Positions 1 through 58,215 of a stretch of DNA of 58,215 nt are shown piece by piece; positions within the stretch are counted from its first letter, which is position 1, and each line of letters opens with the position of its first letter. The position numbers and the translations under genes were made by a program. This DNA is from a virus: IMG/VR virus record IMGVR_UViG_3300009417_000001, positions 1 to 58,215 of that record, one strand, 5' to 3'. The notes beneath the pieces were generated by a model. It searched no databases. It was not told the origin of the DNA and saw only the letters and a program-made list of their open reading frames with translations.

Positions 1-123
1 GGAAAAACCCGAGCAGACGACTGAGGAGAAGGTGGCCGAGCGCGTAGATGCAGGTGACCTAGAAGGCGCAGTAGAAATTTTAGATCAGGAGGCCGGAGGT
101 GCGGCCGAGGCCCTAGGGCTGAC
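1..123. repeat. terminal overlap, identical to 58093..58215 (circular closure or assembly overlap)
   Basis: Base-by-base comparison of the first and last 123 nt. The unique length is 58,092 bp. The overlap lies inside an open reading frame. Confidence 0.95.
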
Positions 124-3100
124 AGAGACTGAGTTGAACGAGCAGCTTGGTGTTTCCCCACCCCCGACACAACTCGACCTGGGGTTAGAGAATACTGAGA
201 CCCCAACCCCGGCTGAAGACCCGGTCGCAGATGAGGACCCGGTCGCAGATGAGGACCCGGTCGCAGATGAGGCCCCGGTCGCAGATGAGGCCCCAACTAC
301 TCCGGCCACCACGCAACCTGAGTTACCTGTTGGCCCGGCCACCACGCAACCTGAGTTACCTGTCGCCGAGCAGCCTGAGTCATCAACTACTCCGGCTACC
401 GAGCAACCTGAGTCATCAACTACTCCGGCTACCGAGCAACCTGAGTTACCTACCCAAACCGAGGAACAAAATGACCCCGCACAACCTAGCCGAGACACAG
501 AAGTACCGGGCGCAGGATCGAACCCAACTACAGAACCGCTGGTCCCGACAGACAGAACAACAGGAGATGGAGAAACATCAAATCCTCCAACAACAACTGG
601 AAACCCTACCGACGTTGCCGGAGAACAAAAGGATGTAACTGAGACCACACAAGCGACTAACGAAAATAGTCAAGAAACTCAACCCGCAGCGGCAGTTCCA
701 AGCCCCACACAGGTGGTAGAAGATCAAAAACCGAAAGTACCTACGGTAAACATCCCGGCTAAAGACCTGACCCCATCTACAGTCCGGGCCGCAGTTAAAG
801 CGGGAGCCCACTTGAATGAAGACGGTTCTTTGACCTTGCGTACCAGCATTAAAGACCGTGTGGACGTGGCAATCGCCCAGGAGAAAAAGCGGGAGGCCGA
901 CAAAGAGAAGATGGCCGACAAACCCGTGACTGTCCCCAAGGACAAGAAGGAGAAGCCGAAGACCGTCCATGACATCCGTCGAGAGAAACTCGAAGCCCTC
1001 CCTTCCCGAAGATCTGCGGAAGACGCGGAAGAGATTTTGGGCGAAGAAATAGTGGCTGCGGTTCGGCTAGGGGTGAACTTTGGTATGCCCATGCGTGTTC
1101 TGGATCAGCAGATCGAAGATGCAGCCAACATAGTCCGGGCGTTTGAGCGTGGCGACCCAGCTTTCACTTTAGCCTCAAGTCCTGGGTACGGTAAAACGTT
1201 TGTTGCCGCCGCAGCCATAAAAGCATTGCAGAACCGAGGTTTCAAAAACTTTACCTACGTCACCAAAAACAAAGGTCTTATCAACCAGTTTAAAGCAGAT
1301 ACCAAAGCATTCAACTTAGGGCCTGTCGATGTGATAAGTTATGCTGGGATGCGAGGTAAAGGGGACTACCTTCCCCCCAAAGACACAGTTTTGTTTTTCG
1401 ATGAGTTTCATGAGCAAGTGGCCAAATTCCCTGCTGGGGGGTCTCGTAACGAGGTGAACAAGGGGCATGTCCTGGGTAAACCCATGCGGCCCAGCGTGAG
1501 AAGACGGGGTTACACCATTTCCAGTCTACAGGCATCTATATGGATGCAACATGTTAAAATGAATGTCTTGGTTTCGGCGACCCCTTTTAGTGATTGGAAG
1601 GGGATGAAAATCCTAGAACATGCTGGGATGTTTGATGAGAATTTCGAGGGGGACCTCAAGACGTTTGGTCAAACGTTTGGGGCCATCGGTAACTCGGATG
1701 GATCACTCACCTCGCGACCAGGTGTCCTGGGGGGCCAAGATCGGGTACGCGCCCGACAGCACCTGTACAACCAAGGACTTTTCGATCACCGTCAAATTGA
1801 GTTGCCTCCCGGCATGGTAGATGCCGAAACCGTGAGTGTTCCCGGAGACCCAGAAATAATTAAAATCAGTAACGCCATCGATCAAGCCTACAATGAAATG
1901 CAGGAAGGGGGTCAGGTAGATCGTAACCTCGCACAGAATATCAAGAACGTTAAGAAGTCGGTGTTGGAATCTATCAAACTCAAAGACGCTATCCTACTGG
2001 CCAAGGACCGGGTAGAGAACCACGGCAAGAGCGTGGTCATCTTTACCGACCGGAAAACATCCACCCGTTGGGACTTAAAGAAACTTGAGTCCGAGTACGC
2101 CCGAGCCAAAGAAAGAAAACGGTTGGGGCAGTTTGTAGATTTCCAGGGGTGGATTGGGGTGGATGGTAAGCCTTACCCACTACCTGTGTCCGAGAATATC
2201 GTTAAGTTTCGACTGCGCGTTGGGGAGATTGTCGGGACCGACCTGATCGTCACCCCCGGGATCGCAGACATCCAGGACTACATCCGAGACACCCTGCAAG
2301 CACCTTTTGGCATGTACATGGGTAGTGGAGAACAGACGAACACTTTGGATGATTTTCGATCAGGTCGGGTTAAATATTTGTTCGCCACTCTTAGTAAAGG
2401 AAGTACTGGCCTAAGCCTTCACGATAAGGTGGGTAACCGACCTACGGAGGCCATTGTTGTGGCACTACCGTGGACCGCAGCCACCGTGCGCCAGGTCGCC
2501 GGACGCACAGCAAGGTTTGGTATGAAGTCACCGACGAAATACCACTGGTTGGTCACCGACGCTAGCCCGTTTGAAAGTGAGATGGCTTCTCGAATGGAGG
2601 AGATGCTTCTGTCGATGGGTGCCTTGGTTAATGGCCGAGTCATGAAAAATGCATCTGTTACAGGCGAGTTCGACATGGAATCCGAGTTAGAAGATCGACT
2701 CGTCAATGGTATGAGTCCCTCGGAACTGCAAGTTGGGGAGCAAACCGCAGGCCCCGTGTCGGCCAACCCGACAAAACTGGGTCAGCCGAAAGCCCAGTCC
2801 AAACCCAAAGCGAAGCCCAAAGCGAAGCCCAAAGCGAAGCCCAAAGCGAAGCCCAAAGCGAAGCCCAAAGCGAAACCCAAAGCGAAACCGGAATCCAAGT
2901 CGGATCTGGACGCACGTATGGATGTCGAAAGAGCCGCCGTGGCCATCGAGCTCCAGGCTGAGGAATTGATGGGTGACCTCCGCACCGTTTTGGGTGAGCG
3001 GGTTCGATTAGTCAAACGTTTGAAAGAGTCTGGGTTTGCCCCTGGGACGGAACAGTTTGCCCGTGCCGCAGCGGCCAACGCCCGAGAAACTCAGTTCGAC

Positions 3101-6100
3101 CAGCAGATGGTCAACTTCCGCAAAGCGTTTGATCAAATGAACATGCCCGTTGAAAGTATGGTTGACGAGGCCTTGCGCCAGATTCAATCCTCTCGCGACG
3201 TGTGGTCTGAATTAGGGGACCTGACTCAACCACTCCCCACCGAAGTAACCGAGGCCGCATCGAAACCTAAAGCCAAGGCGACCCGGAGACCTCGTGCCAA
3301 GCACCTGGGTGAAGTATTGCCTACAGATGTTAAGTCTTTAAAAGCCCACCCTTGGGTCGAGTCCGTTCGCAAGAAGGGGGATAGTGTCATAGTCTCCTTG
3401 AAAGACGGGTACCGAGGTAACTTTAATCGGGTTGTAGAGATGGATCTGGATAACATCTCGGAGGAGTTCCGAGCAATCTCCCGCACTGCCGGGGGCGACG
3501 CATATACCAGAGGCGACGGGGAGTTCGGGGTATTTGCATCTTCAGAAGATGCGGTCCAGGCCGTGTTCGACTTGGACCTTCCCTTGGACACTCAAGCGTT
3601 TAAGATCGAGGAAGTCTTTGACGTTGTTGTGCTTCATATCCGTCCAACACGATTGCCGAAAAACCACCGCCTGATCAAAGAGGGGTTCTTCAACACTGTC
3701 CGCGAAGACAGTTTCTCCCTGGACGACACGCCCACACCTACCCACTTCGGTGAAAACGGCATCATTCGCCTCTACGGACCTCCGAACGGGGCGACCCGAC
3801 GTAGTATTCGAGAATCCCTAGAAAGTGCCGGGTATGGAGGAATAACCATGCGCTCGGGATCATCAGTGAACACTTTAGAGGGACCTGCGGAGGATTTCGA
3901 GAAAATGATGACTGCTGTGGATAGTTGGTACCGATCCCAAGACTCTTTGTCTGTGTCGGATACGGGGATTCCTTTGGGCGGTCACACTCACCCGGACCCC
4001 GCTTCAGAGGCCAAGATCCAAGAGTACGCGGAGAAACTCCGTCGGGAACCACTCACCGAAAAAGAAGACAAAGACTTCAAAAAACTGACGCAGGAGAAAC
4101 GGTCAGCGACCTTCTTTTCCCAGGGTTTGAATTGGCAGTCCACCCCAGGTCTCCAAAAGACCACACTGCTCACCAACCAGGAAAACACTTCCCCTCTCTT
4201 CTCGGGCCTAAATTTCGAAGAGTACCAGACGCGGGATGTTCAGTCCATGTGGGATGTCGGGACCGCCTTCGTCACCGGGATGACGAGCGACAGTGACTTC
4301 TGGGATGCTTACGAAAGTATCAACTCCGACGACTTTGTGCTGCGCCAGTCGGCCCTGGCCAACTTCATCCATGTCCTAAACATGATGGCTGTCAAAGGCC
4401 AAGGTGACCTTGGATCACTACGGGCGAACTCCCGTCGGGCCGAAGCACTGCTCCGTCGGTTGCAGACCACCACAGGTCAGGCGAATAATGTCGCCAAGCT
4501 GTTCCAGTACTACATCCGACAGACTCCACAAGCGTTGCAGGCCACTGCGCTCACGAACCTCTACAACGCATATGTAGGTGAGACGGGGTTGAACGAGAAC
4601 GACGTCAAGCAGACCATGCAGAAGGCCGACGACATGATCCAAGATGCTGCCGACGACGTCATCAAAGGCCAACAACCAGATATGAGGACGGTCGAAGAGA
4701 TTCGCCGGGACGCCCAAAACGATATGCGCCGAGTCGCATCCCTGGACATTATCCAAGGTTTGAAAACTATGAAGGGTAAGTTGGCTGACCTGCTCAAGAA
4801 CAACAAAGACAAATTGTCGGTTGAAGATAACGAAATCGAGGCCCTTGTGTTTGAGATGCTTGGGGAGCCTCAGAAGTGGTTGGACGCGATGGAACAGCGG
4901 CCAGAGATCTATGAGGAATTCACAGAAGACCAAATGGAATTCCTACGAGACCGCCTGACCAACTTCATGCAGGAAACCCAGGCGTTGAACGAGACGATGG
5001 AAACCCCCAAGGCCGAGGCACCAATGAGCCAAGGAGCCAAGGACATTCAGGACGCAGCACAAAAAGCGCACAAACGTAGGAAGCGTAAGAAGCGTAAGAA
5101 AAAGGAAGCTGCTGCTGAAACTCCGGCCACTGCCGAAACTCCTCCACCTGCTGATGCACCTGCCGCTGCTGAAACTCCTGCGGTTGAAGAGCAGTTAGAG
5201 GAAGATCCGAAAGCGTTACTCAAGAAGCGGGTCCGGGCGTGGCTGAAACGTCGTAACCGCACCAAAGATCCAGAGACCGTGGACGAGATCGATGTGGATG
5301 AGCTCACTTTCCAAGAGTGGAAAAAACGTTTGGATAAAATCGCCTACAGGTCGCTCAGGTTTCAGAGCGGCGGGGTAGCCAAGCTAGCCAACGACATGGG
5401 GGAATACCTCGGGGTTAACGAAGCCGACGCAAAAAAGTTGGCTAAACTCTACTACGGAGAGTTCCGCGAGAAGTTAAAGAACCGCAAGGCAGCCATCTTG
5501 TACGCCCGAGAGAACCAACGCCTGAAGCCCAAGATGCTCAGTGTACGTAAAACCTACCTCCAGAAAATCGTGGACCTGGCTCAACTCGGAGCCCTGGAAG
5601 ACCAGGACAACCGATATGAAGAGGCCATGTTGGAGGCGATCGATGAGCATGTCAAACGGAAGAACCCCCTCACTGGGGAGAAATTCCGAGACATGGCTGA
5701 CACGCTCGTAGAGCATTCAGAACTGGTTGCCCAGGCTGCCGATCTCGCCATCGAAGCCGGAGTCGCTCTGGACGTAGACCTCCCCTACCTCGTGCAAGTG
5801 AACGCCATGAATGTGGCTATGCTCAGTGCTTTGGGAGTTAAACTAAGTTCCGCTGCCAGAGTCGTTTTTTACACGAACATGCTGTCTGGGATGTCTACCA
5901 TTCTTGTTAATAATCCAGTTGGCACGGCGTTCAACTTACTTGCATCCACAATCAACGAGATATTTATCGCTCTGTCAGGTAACGATACCGCAGGTACCAA
6001 GGCCAAAGACATTCCCGCAATCCTCCGGTCGGTTATTGGGGGTGTTGCTTCAGGGAAAGACTACGCGACTGTGCTCAAAAACACTGGGGCCGACCCTGTC

Positions 6101-7885
6101 AGAATCACTCGGAAAAATAATGCCGACGTGGACACTGGAAAAGCAATGGCGAACTCCAAACATATCTTTGTGAGGAATTTGGGTCGTGTCGCGGAATTGG
6201 TTTCCAACGCAATGGGCATGGGAGACCTCATGTTCTTCGGGTCGGGTGAGAGTATGTACGCAACGGTTGAAGCGTTGGCTCAGGCCCGACGTCAGGCTGT
6301 GGCCGAGGGTAAAGACCCAAATGACCCTTCGATCCCCGCAAGGGCTCAAAAACTCCTGGAACCTATTTCCCGAGAGGCGGCCATCAACTCTGCTCGTCAG
6401 CGTGCGAGGCAGTTGGGTATGCTGGATCAGCTTGGTGAGTCTGGTGTCCGGGTTATGGCGCAGCAAGTCATGGAGGCGGCCCAGAATCCCTCCATTCGTC
6501 GAGCCGCCAATCACGGGGGGCGCAAGGTTACCTTTACCGAAGAGTCGGGCCGAGGGTTCGGTTACAAGTTGAGTGATATCCTGGGCGACATGAACCGCTC
6601 GCTGCCTACCTGGACAGTCATCCCATTCACGTCGGTTGTCGGGCGGGTTCTCGACCAGAGCCTAGATTACACGATCTTCCGAACCCCTCGGGCAATTGAG
6701 GAATCAATAAACCGCATTAAGACTGGGGAGGCCGTCCCCCGCGAATTGGCCAAAGACGAGATCCAGCACGAAGCTAATCAGAAAGACTCCATCCGACTGG
6801 CCGCTCGTCAGGTTCAAGGGGCCGCCCTCTGGGGTATGTTCCTGCTGACACTGGCCCTCAAAGACGAAGAGGACGAACCGTTCATGGAGTTGTTTGGTGC
6901 AGGGCCCCGCGACTTCTCTAAGAAATTCCAGTGGCGTGCCGCAGGCGGCCGTGAATACACCATGCGGATCGGACCAGTGTACATCCCCTACCGCTTGTCA
7001 CCCCTCGTCATGCAACTGGGTGTCCTCGGCACATATATGGACAACATCAAATACGATGAGAACTTCCAAGACCCGGGGCTGGTGGACCGATTCCAGTTCT
7101 TCCTGACCCAGAACTTTTCCACCATGGTGGACCAGTCGTTCTTGTCGGGCTTACAAGATTTCATGGAAGCTATCGGGGAGCAGAACTCTGAACGGGCGGC
7201 TCAACGTTGGGCAGCTCTTTCGGGCCGTGCGGCTGGGTCGTTCGTACCCTTCAACCTGAACTTCACCCGTCAGATGCACCGTATCATTGTGGGAGAGGCC
7301 TACCAGACCGACCGAAGTGCACTCAAAGTATTTGCGTCTACAATCCCCATCGTGAACGACATCCTCCTCGACGAGCAACTGAACGTCCTGGGCGACCCGG
7401 TCAACATCGACAAACCCGTGTTGGAGTCCTTCACACCTGACCTGTTCAGCGGCCCCTATGACGAGGTGTCCAATCGGATCTTCGACTACGCGGCTGATCG
7501 ACGTGCTTGGGTACCTGTACCATCGGTGCGCGGGACCAGTGTGATCTCTCACGGAGACATGAACATCCAAGAGCGTAAGAGGTTCAAGGACTTACTTGGC
7601 ATGACGTTGACGCTGCCCCAATACCGGGATTATATAAAACTGCGTGGGAAATACATCAAAGAATTGTATGTCCAGCAGGAGGCCGAGATGATGCAAATAC
7701 CTGCCGGACCTTTGGCCAAGAAAGCCATGTCTGACCTGGCCTCCGCAGCGAGTCGCCGAGCCAAACGAGAGTTGATCGGTCTCCCGGGAACCAAGCCGCC
7801 TTCAGCCCGGGCGACCCCGGTAAAAGGAAGGCCGTCTACTAAGAAGACGACCTACCCTAAGAAGACTTCGTTTTACTTGCCTTGA
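2..7885 (+). CDS. giant polyvalent protein, remainder (SF2 DExH helicase module plus long C-terminal region)
   Basis: The frame is open from window position 2, and the GTG at 32 is internal. Helicase motifs: I SPGYGKTF (about 1175..1201), II DEFH (1400..1411), III SAT, V LSKGSTGLSLHD, VI QVAGRTARFG (2492..2521). Low-complexity linkers are present. The stop is at 7883..7885. Confidence 0.85.
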   Translation, partial: EKPEQTTEEKVAERVDAGDLEGAVEILDQEAGGAAEALGLTETELNEQLGVSPPPTQLDLGLENTETPTPAEDPVADEDPVADEDPVADEAPVADEAPTTPATTQPELPVGPATTQPELPVAEQPESSTTPATEQPESSTTPATEQPELPTQTEEQNDPAQPSRDTEVPGAGSNPTTEPLVPTDRTTGDGETSNPPTTTGNPTDVAGEQKDVTETTQATNENSQETQPAAAVPSPTQVVEDQKPKVPTVNIPAKDLTPSTVRAAVKAGAHLNEDGSLTLRTSIKDRVDVAIAQEKKREADKEKMADKPVTVPKDKKEKPKTVHDIRREKLEALPSRRSAEDAEEILGEEIVAAVRLGVNFGMPMRVLDQQIEDAANIVRAFERGDPAFTLASSPGYGKTFVAAAAIKALQNRGFKNFTYVTKNKGLINQFKADTKAFNLGPVDVISYAGMRGKGDYLPPKDTVLFFDEFHEQVAKFPAGGSRNEVNKGHVLGKPMRPSVRRRGYTISSLQASIWMQHVKMNVLVSATPFSDWKGMKILEHAGMFDENFEGDLKTFGQTFGAIGNSDGSLTSRPGVLGGQDRVRARQHLYNQGLFDHRQIELPPGMVDAETVSVPGDPEIIKISNAIDQAYNEMQEGGQVDRNLAQNIKNVKKSVLESIKLKDAILLAKDRVENHGKSVVIFTDRKTSTRWDLKKLESEYARAKERKRLGQFVDFQGWIGVDGKPYPLPVSENIVKFRLRVGEIVGTDLIVTPGIADIQDYIRDTLQAPFGMYMGSGEQTNTLDDFRSGRVKYLFATLSKGSTGLSLHDKVGNRPTEAIVVALPWTAATVRQVAGRTARFGMKSPTKYHWLVTDASPFESEMASRMEEMLLSMGALVNGRVMKNASVTGEFDMESELEDRLVNGMSPSELQVGEQTAGPVSANPTKLGQPKAQSKPKAKPKAKPKAKPKAKPKAKPKAKPKAKPESKSDLDARMDVERAAVAIELQAEELMGDLRTVLGERVRLVKRLKESGFAPGTEQFARAAAANARETQFDQQMVNFRKAFDQMNMPVESMVDEALRQIQSSRDVWSELGDLTQPLPTEVTEAASKPKAKATRRPRAKHLGEVLPTDVKSLKAHPWVESVRKKGDSVIVSLKDGYRGNFNRVVEMDLDNISEEFRAISRTAGGDAYTRGDGEFGVFASSEDAVQAVFDLDLPLDTQAFKIEEVFDVVVLHIRPTRLPKNHRLIKEGFFNTVREDSFSLDDTPTPTHFGENGIIRLYGPPNGATRRSIRESLESAGYGGITMRSGSSVNTLEGPAEDFEKMMTAVDSWYRSQDSLSVSDTGIPLGGHTHPDPASEAKIQEYAEKLRREPLTEKEDKDFKKLTQEKRSATFFSQGLNWQSTPGLQKTTLLTNQENTSPLFSGLNFEEYQTRDVQSMWDVGTAFVTGMTSDSDFWDAYESINSDDFVLRQSALANFIHVLNMMAVKGQGDLGSLRANSRRAEALLRRLQTTTGQANNVAKLFQYYIRQTPQALQATALTNLYNAYVGETGLNENDVKQTMQKADDMIQDAADDVIKGQQPDMRTVEEIRRDAQNDMRRVASLDIIQGLKTMKGKLADLLKNNKDKLSVEDNEIEALVFEMLGEPQKWLDAMEQRPEIYEEFTEDQMEFLRDRLTNFMQETQALNETMETPKAEAPMSQGAKDIQDAAQKAHKRRKRKKRKKKEAAAETPATAETPPPADAPAAAETPAVEEQLEEDPKALLKKRVRAWLKRRNRTKDPETVDEIDVDELTFQEWKKRLDKIAYRSLRFQSGGVAKLANDMGEYLGVNEADAKKLAKLYYGEFREKLKNRKAAILYARENQRLKPKMLSVRKTYLQKIVDLAQLGALEDQDNRYEEAMLEAIDEHVKRKNPLTGEKFRDMADTLVEHSELVAQAADLAIEAGVALDVDLPYLVQVNAMNVAMLSALGVKLSSAARVVFYTNMLSGMSTILVNNPVGTAFNLLASTINEIFIALSGNDTAGTKAKDIPAILRSVIGGVASGKDYATVLKNTGADPVRITRKNNADVDTGKAMANSKHIFVRNLGRVAELVSNAMGMGDLMFFGSGESMYATVEALAQARRQAVAEGKDPNDPSIPARAQKLLEPISREAAINSARQRARQLGMLDQLGESGVRVMAQQVMEAAQNPSIRRAANHGGRKVTFTEESGRGFGYKLSDILGDMNRSLPTWTVIPFTSVVGRVLDQSLDYTIFRTPRAIEESINRIKTGEAVPRELAKDEIQHEANQKDSIRLAARQVQGAALWGMFLLTLALKDEEDEPFMELFGAGPRDFSKKFQWRAAGGREYTMRIGPVYIPYRLSPLVMQLGVLGTYMDNIKYDENFQDPGLVDRFQFFLTQNFSTMVDQSFLSGLQDFMEAIGEQNSERAAQRWAALSGRAAGSFVPFNLNFTRQMHRIIVGEAYQTDRSALKVFASTIPIVNDILLDEQLNVLGDPVNIDKPVLESFTPDLFSGPYDEVSNRIFDYAADRRAWVPVPSVRGTSVISHGDMNIQERKRFKDLLGMTLTLPQYRDYIKLRGKYIKELYVQQEAEMMQIPAGPLAKKAMSDLASAASRRAKRELIGLPGTKPPSARATPVKGRPSTKKTTYPKKTSFYLP
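215..455 (+). repeat. in-frame tandem repeats (18 bp x4, then 33-bp units) encoding an acidic Pro-rich linker
   Basis: GA(A/G)GACCCGGTCGCAGAT occurs four times at 215..286. CCGGCCACCACGCAACCTGAGTTACCTGT occurs at 302 and 335. GAGCA(G/A)CCTGAGTCATCAACTACTCCGGCTACC occurs at 368 and 401. Confidence 0.95.
2804..2887 (+). repeat. 12-bp tandem repeat x7 (CCCAAAGCGAAG) encoding (PKAK)n
   Basis: Seven contiguous units counted at 2804, 2816, 2828, 2840, 2852, 2864 and 2876. Confidence 0.95.
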
Positions 7886-7887
7886 AA

Positions 7888-7899
7888 TCAAACGTTTGA
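7888..7899. repeat. TCAAACGTTTGA palindrome, 3 nt after the giant-gene stop
   Basis: Exact 12-mer read in the sequence. Confidence 0.95.
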
Positions 7900-8125
7900 A
7901 TTACGCCGTTTGCGACGTCGGTTGTTTCGAACTCGGTTGCGGGGATTACGTGCCTGCCAGTCCGAAACTTTCGGCCTCAGACGCTGTTGCTCTCGCACCA
8001 AAGTTGTCTTGGCAATATGCCAAGGTTCAGAGGGGAGCGGGGGTAGGGTGGGTTGGCAACGCCCTACGCACCCGTATTCGTACTCAAAGGTTGGGAAATC
8101 CCCAGGACAGCCAAGGTCTTCTGAA

Positions 8126-8812
8126 TCACTCATTTGTTTCCGGGGGTCGAGCGTCAGCAATGATGTGAAGTCCAGATAGGTTCGACTTTTGAACCTCTTC
8201 TCCGGGCCGCCACTCTGGGTCGAGAATGACCACTTCCTTGTCCCCGGTCGCGTGTTCTTGCATCAGACGCTCGTGTGGGGTCTCCGGGGGCTTCATGCCC
8301 TTGTCTTCTTTGATCGCGTTCTCATAGGTCTCTCGATCAACGCCTCGGTCGGCCAAGGTCTTCTGAGCAAACGCAAACAGTTCCAGGTCATCACCACATG
8401 CCTCGCGGATGGTAGAAACGTACTTATCCCAGGTGTCAGTGTCTGCGTCGTTCTTTCCAGACAGGGCCCGGTGCATAACGCCAGAGAACTTAGCTTGGTC
8501 GGGAGTCAACTCGTGGCCAGACCAAACGGTCATCAGGCCGTAGAACTTGTTATCTGTCTTCCGAACAACACTGATCTCCCCGCAGAAGTACTCGTGGTCT
8601 TGGGTGTTGGCAAATACAGAAACCCGGTCTCGCAGGTCGTTGGCCCACTTCTCCAAAACGTCAGGCTCCAACCCCTCCAGAGCGATTGTCTCGGGGACAG
8701 AGGCCTGGGAAATAAAGTGGGTCAGGGTGCCTAGTCCCTCGGGAGCCAGGTTTTCATAGTTCCATTTCGCCATGCGTTGGATCAGGTCTTTTGATACGTC
8801 GGGTTCATTCAT
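8126..8812 (-). CDS. hypothetical protein
   Basis: 228-aa ORF. Its start lies 1 nt downstream of the polymerase stop. It is the last gene of the leftward module. Confidence 0.75.
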   Translation of the reverse strand: MNEPDVSKDLIQRMAKWNYENLAPEGLGTLTHFISQASVPETIALEGLEPDVLEKWANDLRDRVSVFANTQDHEYFCGEISVVRKTDNKFYGLMTVWSGHELTPDQAKFSGVMHRALSGKNDADTDTWDKYVSTIREACGDDLELFAFAQKTLADRGVDRETYENAIKEDKGMKPPETPHERLMQEHATGDKEVVILDPEWRPGEEVQKSNLSGLHIIADARPPETNE

Positions 8813-8813
8813 C

Positions 8814-10736
8814 TTATGTCTTCATGTAATGGTCTAATAATAATCCCTCCGCAGCAATCGGCAGCCCGGTCGCCCAGGAAGGGGTTTTGATAACTTCCTT
8901 GTGGATAGCATCATAGTACTTCTGAGCCCCTTCGAGGGGGACTTCGCAAATTAACTCGTCGTGGACCGTCCACATCAACAGGACGCCTGGGATTTTGTCC
9001 ACCCGAAACAGGGCGTCCCGCAGTACATCCCGCGCAATGGCCTGGATGACGTTCTCGCACATCAGCCCGCCGTAGAGCTTGTGGATTGAATCTCCTGGCT
9101 TTTTGCGGCGTCCTCCGTGGACTGAGTACCCCGTGTACTCCCACCCGTACTCACCCATCTTACGAGTGATGTTGATGTAGTGTAGTACCCGTCCCGAAGG
9201 GAGCACAAGCTCCAACGTCTTGTCGGGAGAGTCGTAGGCTTCTATCACTCTTTGGTGTAGTGTTTTCCAGAATCCTGTGATCAGGGGGTTCTTACGTCGG
9301 AAGTCGGCCACCACTTCGCGAGCCTTGTGCTCGGGGATAAAGATACCCATCTTCTCAAGCATCCCTTGGTACTTCGCCCAACCCACCTGGTACCCGAGAG
9401 ACAGAACCATCTGCTTGGTGATTTTATATTCATCTGGCGGGACTGTTTCTGCATACGGGGCTGGGTCTGTGTACCCGAGGTAAAGGCGAGCAAACGCCTC
9501 GTACGGGGATTGACCCAAGTGCATCAGTTCCAACATCTTTGTGTTACCTGTCATCCAGGCAAGTACGCGGGGTTCGATCTGGGAGAAGTCAATCGCAGCC
9601 AACTTCTTACCAGGAGGTGCGGCAAACACCTTCCGAATCTCATACCCCCAACGAGGTTTCGAAGTTAAGTTCTCCATGTTGAACCCCCCGACCGAAGTCC
9701 ACCTCCCTGTGTGAGCACCGTGGTAAAACTTAGAGTATGGGAATCGACCGTCTTCTCCGATGCGATTCATGACTTTGGCGAACTTATTCCAGTGGGTGTG
9801 TATCTGAGAAAACTCACTTTTAGCAATGGCCCAAGGAGCCCGTTCTCCATAATCCTCTTGCCATTTGTGCCACCGGGGGTCTTCTTTATTTTGGCTGGGT
9901 GGGATAGGTATCCCGGCCTCCTCGCAAGCGTGGGTGAATGCGTACTTACTTGCCACCCCGGCAATGACGGGTTGGCCTTTACGCGCCATCCGACCACTGG
10001 GGCAAGGTTGGCCCACCCAAGGTATCAAAGCCAAACGTTTTGCTTTTTCGGCCTCCAGGTTTTCAAGGGCCTCGGCGACATATTCCTGGTTGACCCAGAC
10101 GCCTTTCCAACCGAGACGCCGGGTCATTTGGCTAAGACGGCGTTCCGCATCATCCCAATGGTCACATAAGTCGAACCAGAACCGCAGGCAGGAAATTGTA
10201 TCTTGACGACAATACACCACGTATTCCAACCACTCATCATCGGTAAAGTCTGCCCGACGTTTACCCCTCGCTTTGCGGCGGGGGTCCTTATCCATCTCGA
10301 TACCGAACCGATGTTTGAGACAGCCTGCCAGGCTCCTTGGATACCCAGCAGATGCGGCGAGGTCGGCAGAGCATTGGAAGGTAATGTCGGCTTCCCAACC
10401 GCCCAAGTGACTGTTACGTAATATATATTCGTCGAACTCGGCGTTGTGGCAGACTACGGTCAGGCCTTCGAGCCGATCGAACAGGGCTTTGAGGTCGTCT
10501 TCATCGGGGCATTCAAGGCTGATGTCGAGGAAGCCGTATTTGGTCTGTCCGTAGACGTGTACCAGGAGTATTTCAAAATCGGGGTGGGCTTCGTAATTCA
10601 CAACTCCCAGTTCTTTGACGGAGCATTCTTTATCCCAGTAGGATTCGACGTCCGCAGATACTGTCCCGACCTGCCATATAGGCATTGTTTGGGACCCGGG
10701 ACCAGATGACATCTTCAGTGTGGTTGGGCTTGGCAT
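8814..10736 (-). CDS. family A DNA polymerase with 3'-5' exonuclease domain
   Basis: Exonuclease motifs VVCHNAEFDEYIL and YCRQDT. PolA motif A AAIDFSQIEPRVLAW, motif B KQMVLSLGYQVG, motif C WTVHDELICEV. Confidence 0.9.
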   Translation of the reverse strand: MPSPTTLKMSSGPGSQTMPIWQVGTVSADVESYWDKECSVKELGVVNYEAHPDFEILLVHVYGQTKYGFLDISLECPDEDDLKALFDRLEGLTVVCHNAEFDEYILRNSHLGGWEADITFQCSADLAASAGYPRSLAGCLKHRFGIEMDKDPRRKARGKRRADFTDDEWLEYVVYCRQDTISCLRFWFDLCDHWDDAERRLSQMTRRLGWKGVWVNQEYVAEALENLEAEKAKRLALIPWVGQPCPSGRMARKGQPVIAGVASKYAFTHACEEAGIPIPPSQNKEDPRWHKWQEDYGERAPWAIAKSEFSQIHTHWNKFAKVMNRIGEDGRFPYSKFYHGAHTGRWTSVGGFNMENLTSKPRWGYEIRKVFAAPPGKKLAAIDFSQIEPRVLAWMTGNTKMLELMHLGQSPYEAFARLYLGYTDPAPYAETVPPDEYKITKQMVLSLGYQVGWAKYQGMLEKMGIFIPEHKAREVVADFRRKNPLITGFWKTLHQRVIEAYDSPDKTLELVLPSGRVLHYINITRKMGEYGWEYTGYSVHGGRRKKPGDSIHKLYGGLMCENVIQAIARDVLRDALFRVDKIPGVLLMWTVHDELICEVPLEGAQKYYDAIHKEVIKTPSWATGLPIAAEGLLLDHYMKT

Positions 10737-10760
10737 TGTTTTTCTCTTAGTTTGTGGGCA

Positions 10761-10804
10761 ATAAAAAACCCCTTACATCGCCACGTTAAAAACGATGTAA
10801 GGGG
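10761..10804 (-). terminator. rho-independent terminator (minus strand)
   Basis: 12-bp perfect stem CCCCTTACATCG (10769..10780) pairs with CGATGTAAGGGG (10793..10804). On the minus strand it is followed by a T6 run (10763..10768). Confidence 0.75.
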
Positions 10805-10834
10805 AGCATTTCCTAGAAAGAAGAAATGTAAATT

Positions 10835-11140
10835 TTAGACGACTCGGACCTGAGTTGGGTCACCCATTTTGACTTTGATGGTCGCTCCGGGCCGAGATCC
10901 GGTGACTCCTGGGCCAGGGTCGACGTAACTGACGATTCGGGCGTAGGCAGTGCAGGTCTGTTTGCAGCGGCCCCATAAGTAAGCGCAGTGCCACTTGCCT
11001 TTGTAAAAGACTTGCATGTGTGGGGCGCTGGGTAGGAGGTAACCTTTGCATCCGCAGGAGGAGCAAGGGTCACAGGTTTTGTTGGTATAAGCGTTGAGAG
11101 GCATGGTGTTTTCCAGTTTGGATTTATATCGATTAAACAC
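10835..11140 (-). CDS. small Cys-rich protein
   Basis: The ORF contains CDPCSSCGCKGY...CAYLWGRCKQTC. The more likely start is the ATG at 11104 (MPLNAY...), which is preceded by an A-rich leader. Confidence 0.6.
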   Translation of the reverse strand: MFNRYKSKLENTMPLNAYTNKTCDPCSSCGCKGYLLPSAPHMQVFYKGKWHCAYLWGRCKQTCTAYARIVSYVDPGPGVTGSRPGATIKVKMGDPTQVRVV

Positions 11141-11176
11141 ATAATATGCCCCTCAACGGTCACTGTCAAGGGTGGT

Positions 11177-12469
11177 TTAGCCCAGGTTTAGTGAGATTGT
11201 ATCCACCGCTCCTTGGCTCAAAGTACCTGCGCCTTTTACTACGAGGGTCGAGTACATGCCTCGTTTGCCCTCTTTGATTTGGGTGGCGATCTCGAAGATG
11301 CCTGCCCAAGCAGGTAGATTTGCAGGACGTAGAGCTTGACGCTCAATGGTTTTCCAAGGAGCCACGATCTTTTTGACGTCATATCCACGGACTCGGAACT
11401 GCATCATTGCAATTTCACCGTCGTCAGTTTCCAACGTTTGAATCCACTCTGGCCACTCAAAACCTTCTGGTGGGAATACCCCGACAACAAGGTCGATGAC
11501 ATCTTGTAGGGTCCCTTGGTACGGGGCACCATCCAAATCCAGGCAGACACTTCCGTTTTCCTTGACGTATTCATGACCTCGAAGGTCAGCTTCGAGTTCG
11601 CGCTTCTCAACCACGGTTCGAGCAATACGTTTTTCCCCGACGTACGTTTTAGATTCTTCGTCGTAGGGGATGCGTTCCTCCCAGTACGTGTCGCCACGCA
11701 AGAAGCAAAGTTTCAAGAATTCGGACTTCTCGTCTTTCTTGCCCGAGTGTTCGTACAAGGTACCACACTCATCCCCCTGTAGGAAGATTAGGTCTCCGCG
11801 CCCAGCCCCAAAATCAGATTGGGTTTTACCCGATCCAGGAGCGATCAGGAGCCACGGGTGGCTTTCCCGGATGTCTTCTGCCAGTTCGCCTTGTAGCCCC
11901 CCGATGGAGCCGCGAGGGTCCCCGGTTGCCGTGCGACGGGCGACCTCGTTGGCCATTTCATCTGCGACTTGGTGAGTTGTTTTCACAACTTTGGTTTCTG
12001 TCTTTTCGACTGCTTTGGTCTCAACGTCAGATTCTGGTTCTGGATCAGATCCAGTTTCGACTGGTTGGTTGCCTGGAAAACGTGGGTCATTGGGGTCGAT
12101 GGAAAGGATCTCGTCTTCGTCAGTAAGCTCGAAGTCAAAAACCCCGTCTCCGATTTTGGTCCCTTCGCGGATAGTCGATACAGATCCGACGATCTCGCCG
12201 TCATCTGGGTTGTGATACCAGAAGGACCCCCCGACATCAGGTACCTGTTGGATCACCATATCGGGCTTAACGACAATCGGTTTCTTAGTGTTGTCCCGGA
12301 GGACTTTGTAATTGGTGTCGGTCACTGCGGTGACCTTGCCCACGGATTTCTTGTCTTTGTACTCGATGAAGAGTAGGTCGCCCTCTTGGAAAAGGAGTTC
12401 GACTTTGGAGGTGTCTTCCTTTTGAGAGGTTTCATTTTTAGGCGGTGTTAATGTGCTACGTTTTGGCAT
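11177..12469 (-). CDS. hypothetical protein (replication/recombination module)
   Basis: 430-aa ORF with an acidic central region. It has a non-canonical P-loop-like APGSGKT. No function is assigned. Confidence 0.8.
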   Translation of the reverse strand: MPKRSTLTPPKNETSQKEDTSKVELLFQEGDLLFIEYKDKKSVGKVTAVTDTNYKVLRDNTKKPIVVKPDMVIQQVPDVGGSFWYHNPDDGEIVGSVSTIREGTKIGDGVFDFELTDEDEILSIDPNDPRFPGNQPVETGSDPEPESDVETKAVEKTETKVVKTTHQVADEMANEVARRTATGDPRGSIGGLQGELAEDIRESHPWLLIAPGSGKTQSDFGAGRGDLIFLQGDECGTLYEHSGKKDEKSEFLKLCFLRGDTYWEERIPYDEESKTYVGEKRIARTVVEKRELEADLRGHEYVKENGSVCLDLDGAPYQGTLQDVIDLVVGVFPPEGFEWPEWIQTLETDDGEIAMMQFRVRGYDVKKIVAPWKTIERQALRPANLPAWAGIFEIATQIKEGKRGMYSTLVVKGAGTLSQGAVDTISLNLG

Positions 12470-12502
12470 GTGTTATCCTTATTAAGGTTTTATTTAGTTA
12501 GG

Positions 12503-13660
12503 TTAAATTTTTTCTTTGTTGCGTCGGATGTACGCCGAAGATTCATTCTGTCGGGTAATGTCGGAAGCCAGGTCGTTGAAGTTTTCCAGGGCCTGCTTAC
12601 GTGCATCTTTATCCGTAATTACTCCTTCGATGTAATTCTCCAACTTGGACACGTTTACGGTGGCCAACCCCTCTAGACGGATCATGTCGAGGTGGTGGTC
12701 TTCACCCGTTGCTTCTTCGATGGCTCGCTCCATGTGCGAGAAGGCCATACTCAGGTCGGTTATGGTGCGTGTCCCCTTGCGGTGGGCTAGTACGTGACCC
12801 GGCAGTGGGAGGTTCTCCTTGACTACGATTCGGTGCGTCAGTGCCTTAACCTTGTCCAGAGATTTTGCGACGAAGGTTAGGGTCTCTCGGAGCCGGGCAA
12901 TCTCCCGCAGATCTCCATTTTCCAAACGTTTGATATCTAGGTCTTCTTGGGCGGTGAAACCCATCACTTTCGAAATGTCGTTCACCTTCTCGACGTGAGC
13001 CGGGCAAATAGGTTGCCGACCACACCAATCGCAGGCAGTGCCGGGATTTAAGCGGCTTAGATAATCCTCACACCGCACGGAGATCCGAGCTAGATCCGTC
13101 ATGATGGTTTCCATGTCGGCCAGACTCATGTCGTGGACCTGGTCGATTTCGAGTCGGGGGTACACTACGTGAAGTTGAACCGGCAATTGGTAAAGGAGCC
13201 ACGAGGCAGCCCCGTACGCTAGTTGCTGTTTGTTTTTTCCAGGTTCGTCCTGCATGGATCGACCAAATTTCCAGTCAACAATGATGACTTGGTCCTTGGT
13301 GCGGATGAGCACGTCGATGAAGCCCTTTTTTGGGTTTCCTTTTTCGTCCTTACAAAAGGGGATTGCGATCGCCCGTTCAAATTCTACTTTGGCTCCGGGG
13401 TACTGCCCCAACAGTCGGTCCCTGTAATCCATTGCGTATTGGACTAGCTTCTCGTGATCCTTTGAGAGCCCTGCGAGCGTATCGTTCTCGACACATTCGT
13501 GGAGCATGGTGCCTTCTTCGGCGGCAGGTTTATCGACCCATCGGGGTTCAGAAATATATCCCGGGCAGGTGGCCATCGACGACAGTCGGGAGGGGCTCAT
13601 GGTGGGCCGTTTCAGTAAGTCAGAGACGGACTTCGAACGGAATTTGGTTGGTTTTGGCAC
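12503..13660 (-). CDS. PD-(D/E)XK nuclease, Cas4/RecB-like with a Cys cluster
   Basis: Core GFIDVLIRTKDQVIIVDWKFGR. An N-terminal Cys (MATCPGY) plus C-terminal CDWCGRQPICPAH gives a four-Cys pattern. The GTG at 13660 overlaps the upstream gene by 41 nt, so the ATG at 13600 is an equally plausible start. Confidence 0.75.
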   Translation of the reverse strand: MPKPTKFRSKSVSDLLKRPTMSPSRLSSMATCPGYISEPRWVDKPAAEEGTMLHECVENDTLAGLSKDHEKLVQYAMDYRDRLLGQYPGAKVEFERAIAIPFCKDEKGNPKKGFIDVLIRTKDQVIIVDWKFGRSMQDEPGKNKQQLAYGAASWLLYQLPVQLHVVYPRLEIDQVHDMSLADMETIMTDLARISVRCEDYLSRLNPGTACDWCGRQPICPAHVEKVNDISKVMGFTAQEDLDIKRLENGDLREIARLRETLTFVAKSLDKVKALTHRIVVKENLPLPGHVLAHRKGTRTITDLSMAFSHMERAIEEATGEDHHLDMIRLEGLATVNVSKLENYIEGVITDKDARKQALENFNDLASDITRQNESSAYIRRNKEKI

Positions 13661-14207
13661 TCGTTAATATCCTTTCTAGGGAGAGGTATAATGCATATGC
13701 ATCTGCCGATCGCAACCCCAAAGACCCATCTTTTAGCTGTTTTTTCACAATCTTTAGGACATCATCTTTACGGCTTGACTTTTGCCTATTTCGGAAGGTG
13801 GGGCTAAAGAGGTCTTCGGTGCCTACGTCGGCGTCGCCAAATGCATTATAAAATACTTTCTGCCAACTCTGTGGAGCGATCCACCAAACGGTGGGGACTG
13901 CCAGTAGCTCTTGCTCCAGGGCTCCCCGATGCTGGCAGAAAGTCGTGGCTGCCTTCAGACCGTCGCCGGGCAGGACCTTCCCCACATCCTCGACAAAAGC
14001 GAGGCCGACGTCGAGGCCTTCGATCCAGGATCGCATGTCGGCGTGGTCTGGGAGTGGACCTTCGCTCAGGATGTTGAACTGGCAGTCGCACTGAACATAC
14101 CACCCCGACTCGCTTCCAGGATCGATCACCAAAACTGTCCGGTCGGGGTGCATCCCCCAACTCTCCAAAATCCGATCCCGATCATACGATTTTTTAGATA
14201 TTTTCAT
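13620..14207 (-). CDS. RuvC-like Holliday-junction resolvase (putative)
   Basis: VLVIDPGSESGWYV is an N-terminal catalytic-Asp strand. There is an ATGA overlap with the upstream gene. Confidence 0.5.
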   Translation of the reverse strand: MKISKKSYDRDRILESWGMHPDRTVLVIDPGSESGWYVQCDCQFNILSEGPLPDHADMRSWIEGLDVGLAFVEDVGKVLPGDGLKAATTFCQHRGALEQELLAVPTVWWIAPQSWQKVFYNAFGDADVGTEDLFSPTFRNRQKSSRKDDVLKIVKKQLKDGSLGLRSADAYALYLSLERILTSAKTNQIPFEVRL

Positions 14208-14440
14208 CGCAACCCATTCAACGCTCCCGGGTTTCGGCGGTACCTGTAGGAGGGTCGAACGTAGCCGCCGAACTGACGGCGAGTGACTAACCCCATGCGT
14301 ACCAACATAATTAAATCGTCGCTGTGGGTACTTCCATAAAAACCCCCAACGTCCATCGGACGCAGGTATTTTTTATCACTCAAACACATTAGGATTTCCA
14401 GCCTACGTTCGTGGATGTCTTGGCTCTTGGCGAGCATCAT
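14204..14440 (-). CDS. small hypothetical protein (possible winged-helix)
   Basis: 78-aa ORF with start/stop overlaps on both sides. Confidence 0.6.
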   Translation of the reverse strand: MMLAKSQDIHERRLEILMCLSDKKYLRPMDVGGFYGSTHSDDLIMLVRMGLVTRRQFGGYVRPSYRYRRNPGALNGLR

Positions 14441-31822: not shown

Positions 31823-32088
31823 GCGCGTTTTTCCCCCACCTCCAACGTCGTATAATAAGCATTATGTCTACTTGGCGACAGGGCAGCCAAGCCACCATGC
31901 TGCTAAAGCCAAATGCCCCCGCCCCCTAAACGATCCCTTTGCACGCGCGGACACCCCCACCCCCACCCCCCTCCGCAACTTTCCCGCCTCTCCCTCCCGC
32001 GTTCGCTATACATGGGTACCCCACCCCCGGCTACCCGGTTTCCTGGAATCCCAGGCAACAATTACCTTGAGTTTAAAAATAAAAAAAA

Positions 32089-56287: not shown

Positions 56288-58215
56288 ATGCCTGTTAACG
56301 GACTTTACCCACTACCTGAAATCCTAGCCAGCACCGAGTACCAGTCAATGGAGCCTGATAACCAGGTTGCATTACTGCGTGACCAACGTCGTATAGCCAC
56401 AGAGATGGCTCCAGACCAAACGGATCAATTGGTCTCCCTGTACGATTCAGCGATCTTGGACGTAGCCCTAAAGCCACCAACGATCCCAACCTCGACAAAC
56501 ATGTCGAATGCATTCCAGAAGTCTTTTGACGCCCTCTGGTCTAATGCATATTACGGCCTGATCGACACAGACGTAGAAGCAGCTAAGATGCACCGCACGC
56601 TGTTAGAGCGTCGTCAACCCACGCGGGAGGGGTTTTCAGAAGATGTGGGTGAAGTGGCGGGTATGGTGCTTCCCTCGATCGCAGCCCTATTCATTCCAGG
56701 CGGCCAAGGAACCTCGGCGGCCGGGATTCTTAATCTAGCTCGTTACGCCACGGCAGCACTACCCCTCGCCACCAGTTCCGGGGGTGGAGCCTTAATTGAT
56801 GCTCGCGAGTACCAAGATTTAATCGGAGGTCCCGAACTCTCCAAAACTCGACAGACAGCCATCTTCGCAGGTAACTTCCTGACTGAGGCAGCCACAGAGG
56901 CCCTCGGGTTCAAAGTTATCGACGGTATCTTGGGCAAGGCGGGTCAGAAACTAGGCGGCAAGGCCTTTGCTAAAATGGGTACCGAGGCTGCCGAGGCGAT
57001 GGGCGACGCTCTCCTCCGAGGCGATACAGCAGGTATGGGGCAGGCATCCAAGAAATTCTTTGCTACGGCCCTCCCGGCCGCATTCGGTGTAGCCGCGTCT
57101 GAGGGTACCGAGGAAGTGGTCGCCCAGATAGCTCAGAACGCTTTGAAGAACTCCCTGTACTTGCAGGACCAAGATGAAGTGAGTCTGGGTGACGGCCTAG
57201 GAGATGCGTTTTATAAGGGGGCTTTGGGTGGCCTGATGATCACCCCTTTCGGCCTGGCGGTTGGTAATTCAAGCGCAGGTAAATATCGAGAAAAATTGGA
57301 GGCCAACCTCCGCGAACGCCATTCACTAATTCAACAGGTATCAGAAACTGTAGCTCCTTCGACCTTTGCCCCCGAGGCACTGAGTCACCCAAGTTACCAG
57401 ACGTTAGCAGGCATCTTGGCATTCCATGAAGTCAATGTCATCCCAGTCCGAGGCCTCAGTGGGGCTCGAGGTGTAGTTCCCGGTGAAAGCTCGAATGACG
57501 TTTTGGTAGACGTTGATCGGTTGATCAAACCTGCGGAAGGATTCTCCGCGATGCTCCAATATACCTTGGGTCACGAGATGAACCACATCGTGGAAAACAA
57601 GGTGCCGGGTTACCGAGAGGCTTTGGAAGGGTTGGTCAAGTCAGACCCCGAATATTCAAAACGTTTGAATGACTTACGGGCGAACAGCAACCTTGACAAC
57701 GCCACCGAAGAGCAGGCCGTGTCGGAGCTCATCGCCGACTATGCAGCCCCCAAATTCTTTACCCCGGAGTTTCAGCAAGCTTTGTTCGATTCTCTGCCCG
57801 AAGGAGAGGCTAAAAAGTCCTACGTTCAAGCAGTGTCTTCGAACTCAGATTCGATCACCCGTGCGACGGCCGCCCTTGAAACCTTTTTGGAACAACCTAC
57901 AGGCACTCCTGCCCTAGTCACTCGGGCGCGGGAAGCAGTCGAGGGGATGCCTGACGTGAAGGCCATCGACACCTTGCTAACCCAGGGGTTGGCGGCATCT
58001 ATCTTGGACGGCGAGATCATCAATCAAACAGTCCCCGGAACTGCGGCCACAGGCGACCAGGCGACCGAGGAACAAGCTGAACAGGCGACCGAGGAAAAAC
58101 CCGAGCAGACGACTGAGGAGAAGGTGGCCGAGCGCGTAGATGCAGGTGACCTAGAAGGCGCAGTAGAAATTTTAGATCAGGAGGCCGGAGGTGCGGCCGA
58201 GGCCCTAGGGCTGAC
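56288..58215 (+). CDS. giant virion-module polyvalent protein, N-terminal part (continues at 2..7885 across the junction)
   Basis: ATG at 56288 lies 18 nt after the stop of the upstream gene. I translated the frame by hand and found no stop before the window end, which is why it is absent from the ORF track. It is in phase with ORF 32..7885 through the 123-nt overlap. It has Gly/Ala-rich hydrophobic segments followed by LGHEMNHIVE (HExxH at 57572..57586). Confidence 0.85.
   Translation, partial: MPVNGLYPLPEILASTEYQSMEPDNQVALLRDQRRIATEMAPDQTDQLVSLYDSAILDVALKPPTIPTSTNMSNAFQKSFDALWSNAYYGLIDTDVEAAKMHRTLLERRQPTREGFSEDVGEVAGMVLPSIAALFIPGGQGTSAAGILNLARYATAALPLATSSGGGALIDAREYQDLIGGPELSKTRQTAIFAGNFLTEAATEALGFKVIDGILGKAGQKLGGKAFAKMGTEAAEAMGDALLRGDTAGMGQASKKFFATALPAAFGVAASEGTEEVVAQIAQNALKNSLYLQDQDEVSLGDGLGDAFYKGALGGLMITPFGLAVGNSSAGKYREKLEANLRERHSLIQQVSETVAPSTFAPEALSHPSYQTLAGILAFHEVNVIPVRGLSGARGVVPGESSNDVLVDVDRLIKPAEGFSAMLQYTLGHEMNHIVENKVPGYREALEGLVKSDPEYSKRLNDLRANSNLDNATEEQAVSELIADYAAPKFFTPEFQQALFDSLPEGEAKKSYVQAVSSNSDSITRATAALETFLEQPTGTPALVTRAREAVEGMPDVKAIDTLLTQGLAASILDGEIINQTVPGTAATGDQATEEQAEQATEEKPEQTTEEKVAERVDAGDLEGAVEILDQEAGGAAEALGL
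58093..58215. repeat. terminal overlap, second copy of 1..123
   Basis: Identical to 1..123. Confidence 0.95.

Follow-up and report, generated by a model that had tools for sequence, protein, structure and literature searches.

A SWI2/SNF2-clade ATPase nearest to Strawberry notch in a giant, probable internal virion or ejection protein of an IMG/VR phage

It has long been asked how the DNA of podoviruses enters the host once the pressure-driven phase is over; phage T7 provides one answer with RNA polymerases and an ill-defined gp16 'ratchet' and phage N4 another with an ejected RNA polymerase. The latter enzyme, the N4 virion RNA polymerase, is packaged in the podovirus capsid and ejected together with the DNA, and its transcription helps the DNA to enter. 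Among very large phage proteins, the polyvalent proteins have been interpreted as early effectors that are injected together with the DNA, and the class as a whole has been read as serving counter-defence (Iyer, Burroughs, Anand, de Souza & Aravind, 2017; PMC5512222). Their most frequent domain is the zincin peptidase, LPD38 and DdrB-ParB are restricted to their phage-type members, and SNF2 ATPases are 'nearly always' joined to LPD36 and an adenine methylase, an arrangement typified by DarB, whereas Strawberry-notch-like ATPases were noted only 'in a few instances' (PMC5512222). DarB of phage P1 has been reported as a component of the virion head that contains an SNF2-related ATPase and protects the incoming DNA in cis (PMC5512222). 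Here we report on a protein of 3,229 amino acids encoded by the viral record IMGVR_UViG_3300009417_000001 (positions 1 to 58,215; this whole stretch of 58,215 nucleotides is referred to as the window) and on the ATPase module within it, which an initial annotation had described as a complete SF2 DExH helicase embedded in a giant virion-module protein.

The module is a real SF2 ATPase that, judged from its sequence, is catalytically intact. All five SF2 motifs listed in the initial annotation were recovered from the translated sequence in the same order and at the same coordinates (Table 1), and the proposal of a complete and not degenerate module was borne out by 821 homologues, the family alignment and a structural model, while its placement at 1150-2560 needed correction only in extent, the conserved part being slightly wider. 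An alignment of 22 sequences demonstrated that the window copy has kept all catalytic residues that are invariant in the family, namely GxGKT, DE.H, the TP of motif III, AT..KG.TGLSLHD and QV.GR..R.G. Pfam searches with the window protein returned ResIII (E = 1.3e-6, exceeding the gathering score), Helicase_C_4 (E = 6e-5), the C-terminal domain of Strawberry notch, and Helicase_C (E = 0.0085), and the module was likewise matched by PHROG 16, 'DNA helicase' (E = 3e-6). The AlphaFold model of the module, built on the same 22-sequence alignment (predicted local distance difference test, pLDDT, 78; predicted TM-score, pTM, 0.76), consists of two tandem RecA-like lobes of beta-alpha structure that surround motifs I-III and V-VI. 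A catalytically dead relic, kept in a huge core protein only for its bulk or as a scaffold, might be suspected from the 22-residue insertion behind motif II, which is lineage-specific, absent in the 21 aligned relatives (alignment columns 167-198) and predicted to be disordered (pLDDT <50 at model residues 150-174), as well as from the missing 'KN' of the SNF2 signature. However, the invariant residues of motifs I, II, III, V and VI have been kept at only ~35% identity to the nearest relatives, and the ATPase is the only region of the protein that is conserved across the family, so that loss of catalysis appears very improbable.

With regard to the type of enzyme, the original designation was right in assigning the module to SF2 and misleading in calling it a DExH helicase, since fold and profile alike place it among the SWI2/SNF2-clade ATPases, nearest to Strawberry notch (Sno/SBNO). 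When the model was compared with the PDB by Foldseek, the top 50 matches were all Snf2-family enzymes (E = 1e-11 to 1e-9; 380 matches with E<1e-3), including Chd1, ISWI, Rad5, Sth1, CSB/Rad26, Mot1, INO80, ALC1 and RapA, and in BFVD the top matches were fragments of large phage proteins, SNF2-like helicases and a 'chromatin remodeling complex ATPase'. Moreover, long helices corresponding to SNF2-type helical insertions lie between the lobes (model residues 290-347), and the family consensus of motif II conforms to the SNF2 signature DE(A/G)HxxKN, from which the window copy departs in lacking the KN. The best profile match of the module family was a Strawberry notch protein (PF13872+PF13871), with a probability of 99% in hhalign (E = 8e-18, 432 columns), and AAA_34 (PF13872) matched 12 of 13 relatives, at best with 36.4 bits against a cut-off of 27. 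Of these two Pfam families the window copy itself matched only Helicase_C_4 (PF13871), at 23.3 bits and thus under the gathering cut-off of 30.5. Unlike in Strawberry notch, the module lies in the middle of a 3,229-residue virion-type protein, and the C-terminal winged-helix (SnoC) extension of Sno was not matched: profile positions 172-271 of Helicase_C_4 remained unaligned in the window protein, and conservation in the family alignment ends directly after the ATPase. A DEAH/RHA or DEAD-box identity was rejected, the fold matching Snf2 enzymes only and the Pfam DEAD and Helicase_C scores being marginal. The profile searches that had been proposed for placing the module among SNF2, DarB-like and DEAH enzymes thus favoured the first and spoke against the last, and a resemblance to DarB was confined to motifs V-VI.

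Because of this placement in the SNF2 clade and of what is established about that clade, the module is most likely a translocase on double-stranded DNA and not a strand-separating helicase. An identity as replicative helicase was also discarded, as the relatives of the module are located in giant late proteins while the replication genes are found elsewhere. One task for such an enzyme would be to jump-start transcription: like RapA/HepA or Mfd/CSB, the ejected ATPase would target nucleoid proteins or the RNA polymerase of the host and load or recycle RNA polymerase on the entering genome. The presence of RapA and CSB/Rad26 among the structural matches would fit this explanation, as would the fusion of the module to Sigma70_r2 in one relative, the lack of any recognised RNA polymerase among the 61 other open reading frames (ORFs) of the window and the description of establishing transcription as the main early problem of phages (PMC5512222). 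Yet no RapA-specific similarity extends beyond the Snf2 core, RapA appears only at rank 34 and below, no domain that binds RNA polymerase was recognised, and the sigma fusion is limited to 1 of 13 relatives, which leaves a function in transcription improbable.

The likely location of the protein is indicated by its C-terminus. According to profile comparisons its C-terminal ~320 amino acids are homologous to the C-terminus of an internal virion protein of T7-like cyanophages, and this homology makes it very probable that the giant protein, too, is internal to the virion or ejected from it. An iterated hidden Markov model (HMM) seeded with window residues 2851-3200 converged at 40 giant proteins and always matched at the extreme C-terminus; the domain has no Pfam match. 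Foldseek searches of BFVD with its predicted structure gave matches of two kinds, with E-values between 1e-5 and 2e-3 and low TM-scores, one comprising fragments of polyvalent proteins (ART-PolyVal, LPD-containing) and the other the 'internal virion protein' of a Pelagibacter phage and of two Synechococcus phages, S-CBP3 and S-CBP2. Likewise, a tblastn search with a family member matched the internal virion protein of the Synechococcus T7-like virus S-TIP28 and that of S-CBP3, the family HMM scored 58 bits in hmmsearch on STIP28_48 of S-TIP28 (residues 854-1031), and hhalign, run with an alignment headed by the window sequence, joined window residues 2872-3188 to residues 851-1155 of this 1,192-residue cyanophage protein over 282 columns (probability 97.5%, E = 7.6e-12). 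STIP28_48 is encoded where T7-like phages have gp16, directly before the tail fibre gene, and the N-terminus of the S-TIP28 tail fibre matches T7 gp17. In both proteins the homologous part forms the extreme C-terminus, and each gene is the final large one of its structural block, which in the window is a presumed one, with the tail fibre gene coming next in S-TIP28. In contrast to the window protein, which is 2.7 times longer, STIP28_48 is without an ATPase. In T7 the C-terminal part of gp16 is a cytoplasmic DNA-binding hub that has been implicated in the transcription-independent entry of the leading DNA (PMC8954989). A reading of the giant ORF as a tape measure protein was dropped in view of the match of its C-terminus to podovirus internal virion proteins, the tape measure hit having appeared at rank 31 with E = 1.5.

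Alternatively, the protein could be no virion cargo at all. It would then be made late and act in the producing cell, in genome processing, recombination, the handling of concatemers or packaging, and the similarity to internal virion proteins would reflect merely a shared structural scaffold. It is true that no terminase or packaging enzyme is recognisable in the genome and that the virion location is deduced. However, the homology of the C-terminal domain concerns an internal virion protein and the same terminal position, and relatives carry domains that have been described only in injected phage polyvalent proteins, one of them also a peptidoglycan peptidase. In addition, SNF2-type enzymes are not known to act as packaging motors, this being the task of terminase/ASCE packaging ATPases. 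A role confined to the producing cell therefore seems to us a rather remote prospect.

The family to which the module belongs is large and comprises hundreds of phage relatives. An exhaustive phmmer search of 1.84 billion cluster representatives (clusters at 50% identity) yielded 821 homologues with E<1e-3, of which 124 reached E<1e-30, the best (E = 2.7e-70) sharing ~35% identity with the module. Almost all of the 821 are giant proteins of 2,000-7,800 amino acids with the module in an internal position, and the 55 viral loci that the family profile detected in IMG/VR show the module nearly always inside ORFs of 3,000-6,800 amino acids. By tblastn no family match was found among 50,697 isolate phage genomes, P1 (AF234172) included, and single-sequence queries returned nothing from PDB sequences, a word-indexed set of 5.8 billion proteins or IMG/VR peptide patterns; the relatives surfaced only through the exhaustive HMMER search and the family profile. 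Word-indexed searches with two profiles, that of the ATPase alignment (A1) and A5, gave one protein each, the useful one being the Strawberry notch protein P0151. The cellular genomes of 185,579 species contributed 10 loci, mostly on contigs of metagenome-assembled genomes. The sole cultured isolate among these species is Azospirillum canadense DS2 (NZ_JAOQNG010000005.1, 391696-399399), in which the ORF exceeds 2,568 amino acids and may belong to a prophage. Plasmids supplied a single distant match, at 9048-10421 of the Thermus thermophilus SG0.5JP17-16 megaplasmid NC_017273.1, which is annotated as 'DEAD/DEAH box helicase family protein' and shares 29% identity with a family member (E = 1e-38).

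Within the window protein it is the ATPase that defines the family. A BLASTP comparison of the whole protein with its 150 best relatives showed residues ~900-1510 to be the only region common to nearly all of them, the C-terminal stretch being common to few, and residues 102-344 gave weak matches to P0097 and P0119. Neither segment 1-930 nor segment 1510-2800 had a phmmer homologue with E<1e-3 in the 150 relatives and 58 loci, and NCBIfam returned nothing for the other segments of the protein. In an alignment of relatives P0003-P0025, conservation in many of them extends to a pair of short elements just in front of the ATPase on its N-terminal side, 'GEQxxGFGKYxxxxxKD...DPxYxxWL' and 'GKTYDxKDxIKxxGGRxDxxxxxW', both of which are absent from the window protein. 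The window phage has almost nothing else in common with the 55 IMG/VR loci. The nearest genome-level relative seen was IMGVR_UViG_3300005805_000002 (L058; 74 kb, positions 3397-15830), which, at 21-34% identity, has the sole detectable homologues of the window's PolA, exonuclease and SF2 helicase (14783-16099) and of two large ORFs of its presumed late block, 31913-34195 and 35503-37911.

A Pfam census of 13 full-length relatives, to which three further relatives (16 in all) with only the ATPase can be added, found the module combined with LPD38, DdrB-like ParB and ExoX-like_C in two proteins each and with ART-PolyVal, Peptidase_M15_4/VanY, Sigma70_r2 and His_Phos_1 in one each. The window protein likewise unites several unrelated domains in one polypeptide, the SNF2-like ATPase and the internal-virion-protein domain, plus an unverified HExxH region. 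It thus resembles the polyvalent proteins (PMC5512222) in being giant, multidomain and encoded at the end of a presumed late block, in having an SNF2-related ATPase and probably a zincin-type HExxH, and in the LPD38, DdrB-ParB and ART-PolyVal domains that its relatives carry. It differs in the module that is prevalent in that class, LPD36 joined to methylase and SNF2 ATPase: Pfam searches detected no adenine methylase and no LPD36 in the window protein, the 16 relatives or the 61 other ORFs of the genome. Furthermore, the terms 'internal virion', 'gp16' and 'ejection' do not occur in PMC5512222, and no link to an internal-virion-protein C-terminus is made there. Phage polyvalent proteins with SNF2-related ATPases are an already described class, while the literature searched contained neither a large methylase-free Strawberry-notch-like family, nor its restriction to uncultured phages, nor its fusion to an internal-virion-protein domain.

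The comparison with P1 DarB that had been drawn in the initial annotation stood at the level of the class, both being polyvalent proteins with an SNF2-related ATPase, and failed with respect to the methylase, LPD36 and a specific kinship of the ATPases. DarB (AAQ13985.1; 2,255 amino acids) is also very large and has an ATPase of the SF2/SNF2-related type, but carries an N6-adenine methylase N-terminal to it, and P1 is a myovirus, whereas the C-terminal domain of the window protein points to core proteins of the podovirus type. An hhalign comparison of the family profile with DarB covered only 61 columns, in motifs V-VI, at a probability of 74.5%, and with methylase and LPD36 missing as well, membership in the DarB type was rejected. 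Nevertheless, the protein could still be anti-restriction or anti-defence cargo that works as DarB does, with the ATPase injected as a free effector and not as a tethered motor; it would coat or track along the entering DNA and protect it in cis against type I/III restriction or DNA-sensing defences, and the putative HExxH peptidase would free the other parts of the polypeptide. The precedent of DarB itself and the interpretation of the class as counter-defence (PMC5512222) agree with such a role, as do the fusions of related modules to the conflict domains ART-PolyVal and DdrB-ParB nuclease and the HExxH motif, which occurs in the window protein and was matched in 94 of 150 relatives, a figure not corrected for chance in such long proteins. 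The absence of the defining methylase and LPD36 from protein, relatives and genome, the narrow profile similarity to DarB, and the fact that the module is the conserved core while its flanks vary argue in the other direction, and we consider a free protective effector doubtful.

Taken together, we favour, at a probability of roughly 45%, that the window encodes a giant polyvalent ejection protein with an intact SNF2-clade motor acting on the entering genome. In this mechanism the C-terminal domain would position the protein first within the capsid core and, once it is ejected, at the DNA channel across the envelope, where the ATPase would meet host ATP and translocate on the double-stranded DNA of the incoming phage genome without unwinding it. 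Anchored to the ejection complex, the motor would by its translocation draw the genome in or along and would also sweep host proteins such as restriction enzymes and nucleoid proteins off the DNA. The module may have one of the roles put forward in the initial annotation, as entry motor, in protein stripping or in anti-restriction. That genome internalisation is the main effect within this mechanism can be proposed only hesitantly, and the clearing of proteins or evasion of defence as its main effect seems unlikely. In a stricter version, the gp16-like C-terminal domain would fix the SNF2-type ATPase to the ejectosome on the cytoplasmic side, and the ATPase would pump double-stranded DNA into the cell with host ATP, like an anchored chromatin remodeller pumping DNA past a histone octamer, and would replace the transcription-driven or undefined 'ratchet' entry of T7 and N4. 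The role as entry motor is attractive because of this tethering, but in its strict form we hold it to be unlikely. A protection of the DarB kind without methylation and an entry motor appear about equally plausible to us, with a remodelling of RNA polymerase less likely. The N4 virion RNA polymerase (gp50, ~3,500 amino acids) offers a parallel for a giant enzyme that acts on the entering genome in a podovirus-type context, although it is an RNA polymerase and not an SNF2 ATPase and no sequence relationship between the two was found.

Several observations weigh against an SNF2-clade ejection motor. Packaging into virions, ejection, the DNA substrate and the biological effect are all steps that we infer, and a protein of ~350 kDa must thread through the portal and the tail channel, for which the N4 virion RNA polymerase is the precedent. 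The virion location depends on remote homology to a protein whose own annotation is based on position and similarity. The C-terminal domain is present in just 18 of 150 representatives, which means that such an anchor is not universal in the family; its AlphaFold model has a pLDDT of 65 and a TM-score of ~0.2 to the Foldseek matches, and hmmsearch with filters off detected no similarity to gp14, gp15 or gp16 of T7. In the motor itself, motif II of the window copy reads DEFHEQVAKF and is followed by the 22-residue insertion, the 'KN' of the SNF2 signature being replaced. Moreover, PHROG, Pfam and tblastn searches recognised no terminase, portal, capsid or tail gene in the window. The label of a late or virion block is only positional, because the ~20 large plus-strand ORFs at 29205-56269 belong to no Pfam or PHROG family and the two tested by tblastn match no isolate phage. 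The designation 'giant virion-module protein' was supported for the protein by the internal-virion homology of the C-terminus, but hallmark genes gave no confirmation of a virion module, none being recognisable in the genome.

The first 123 bp of the window are identical to its last 123 bp (1-123 and 58093-58215), so that the assembly closes to a circle of 58,092 bp, which is probably a complete phage genome. The frame of the giant ORF runs uninterrupted from its ATG across the circular junction to its stop codon (Table 1), so that the earlier assignment of the module to an ORF of 2,617 amino acids at 32-7885 was too short, having been cut at an artificial break. The gene comes last after a series of plus-strand ORFs that extends over 27 kb (29.2-56.3 kb) and is followed on the minus strand by a replication block (8.8-28.5 kb) with PolA, an exonuclease, an SF2 helicase, a primase/D5-like helicase, a DHH phosphoesterase, ParB and ThyX. 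The two further helicases mentioned in the initial annotation both exist, one as a primase/DUF5906 (D5-like) protein (19668-21947) and the other as an SF2 helicase (14783-16099), and the module is indeed additional to a separate set of replication genes that has its own primase-helicase and SF2 helicase and lies on the opposite strand. A similar layout was found in relatives on phage-sized contigs (33-78 kb), where the giant gene stands last in a block of genes without annotation; in one of them a tail Collar-domain gene is situated just downstream of the giant gene and a CHAP domain upstream. The phage looks like a member of an uncultured, deeply divergent lineage and is probably short-tailed.

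Outside the two conserved domains the giant protein consists largely of segments with little recognisable similarity (Table 1). The putative zincin-like metallopeptidase region contains the only HExxH of the protein (LGHEMNH, residues 429-433, nucleotides 57572-57586), for which shuffled sequences gave a probability of 2.6% of arising by chance; it fits the zincin peptidases typical of the polyvalent class and obtained no support from Pfam, NCBIfam, a PDB sequence search or homologues in the 150 relatives and 58 loci. The basic (KPKA)x7 repeat behind the ATPase is possibly a flexible DNA-binding linker. Four in-frame tandem repeats make up linkers, the length of which could vary between strains. 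Hydropathy analysis gave three weak hydrophobic segments only (residues 120-138, 2540-2558 and 2575-2593), and we make no firm claim of transmembrane segments.

Table 1. Coordinates of the giant gene, of the elements it encodes and of two other genes in the window (aa, amino acids; nt, nucleotide positions).
Feature	Position (nt)	Strand	Remarks and evidence
Giant gene, 5' part	56288..58092	+	Starts with ATG; aa 1-602; 58093-58215 duplicates 1-123
Giant gene, 3' part	1..7885	+	aa ~602-3229 plus stop
ATPase module, two RecA-like lobes with helical insertions	1028..2641	+	aa ~945-1482; Pfam, PHROG, homologues, AlphaFold, Foldseek, hhalign
Motif I / Walker A, SPGYGKTF	1178..1201	+	aa 995; G, G, K, T invariant across family
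Motif II / Walker B, DEFH	1400..1411	+	aa 1069; family consensus DEAHxVKN, SNF2-like
Arg/Lys-rich insertion after motif II	1430..1507	+	~22 extra residues within aa ~1079-1104
Motif III, SAT (inside VSATP)	1574..1582	+	Motif search and family alignment
Motif V region, LSKGSTGLSLHD	2390..2425	+	Family consensus MAKGGTGLSLHD
Motif VI with arginine fingers, QVAGRTARFG	2492..2521	+	Motif search and family alignment
Conserved C-terminal domain	6809..7759	+	aa 2872-3188; iterated HMM, Foldseek BFVD, tblastn, hmmsearch, hhalign
Putative zincin-like metallopeptidase region	57470..57787	+	Motif level: HExxH and downstream Glu-rich helix EEQAVSELIADY
Acidic Pro/Thr/Glu-rich low-complexity linker	2..838	+	aa ~603-881; composition, Tandem Repeats Finder
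18-bp in-frame tandem repeat	214-294	+	Encodes PVADE(D/A); within acidic linker
33-bp in-frame tandem repeat	366-446	+	Encodes TEQPESSTTPA; within acidic linker
(KPKA)x7 basic repeat directly after ATPase	2801..2884	+	12-bp in-frame tandem repeat at 2804-2886, 6.9 copies
Basic patch KRRKRKKRKKK	5072..5104	+	Sequence repeat analysis
Ala/Pro/Glu/Thr-rich repeat, period 18 bp	5111-5181	+	After basic patch; in-frame tandem repeat
ThyX thymidylate synthase	24676-25335	-	Pfam E = 2.5e-46; ORF assigned via RHR...S...SxR motif
GP88-family protein	30174-30848	+	Pfam E = 2.3e-40

Among the remaining genes of the window, a GroES-like Cpn10 was detected (E = 1e-7; ORF not localised), and a Cpn10 gene is also present in one of the relatives (L060). 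The product of 249 amino acids encoded at 34158-34907 on the plus strand has homologues with 29-33% identity in four relatives (L027, L028, L041 and L052; ~18.7-19.9 kb). These four genes overlap the last bases of the giant gene or lie within 1 kb downstream of it, whereas the window copy is found 22 kb upstream of its start, and gene order has consequently been rearranged.

With 821 clusters and 55 IMG/VR loci and none in 50,697 isolate phages, the family represents a common and experimentally untouched feature of environmental phages. Should the motor serve to remove restriction or defence proteins instead, and do so unaided by a methylase, it would split the DarB paradigm into its two halves. 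An ATP-dependent translocase on double-stranded DNA within an ejection-type protein would, if true, be a third solution to the problem of genome entry.

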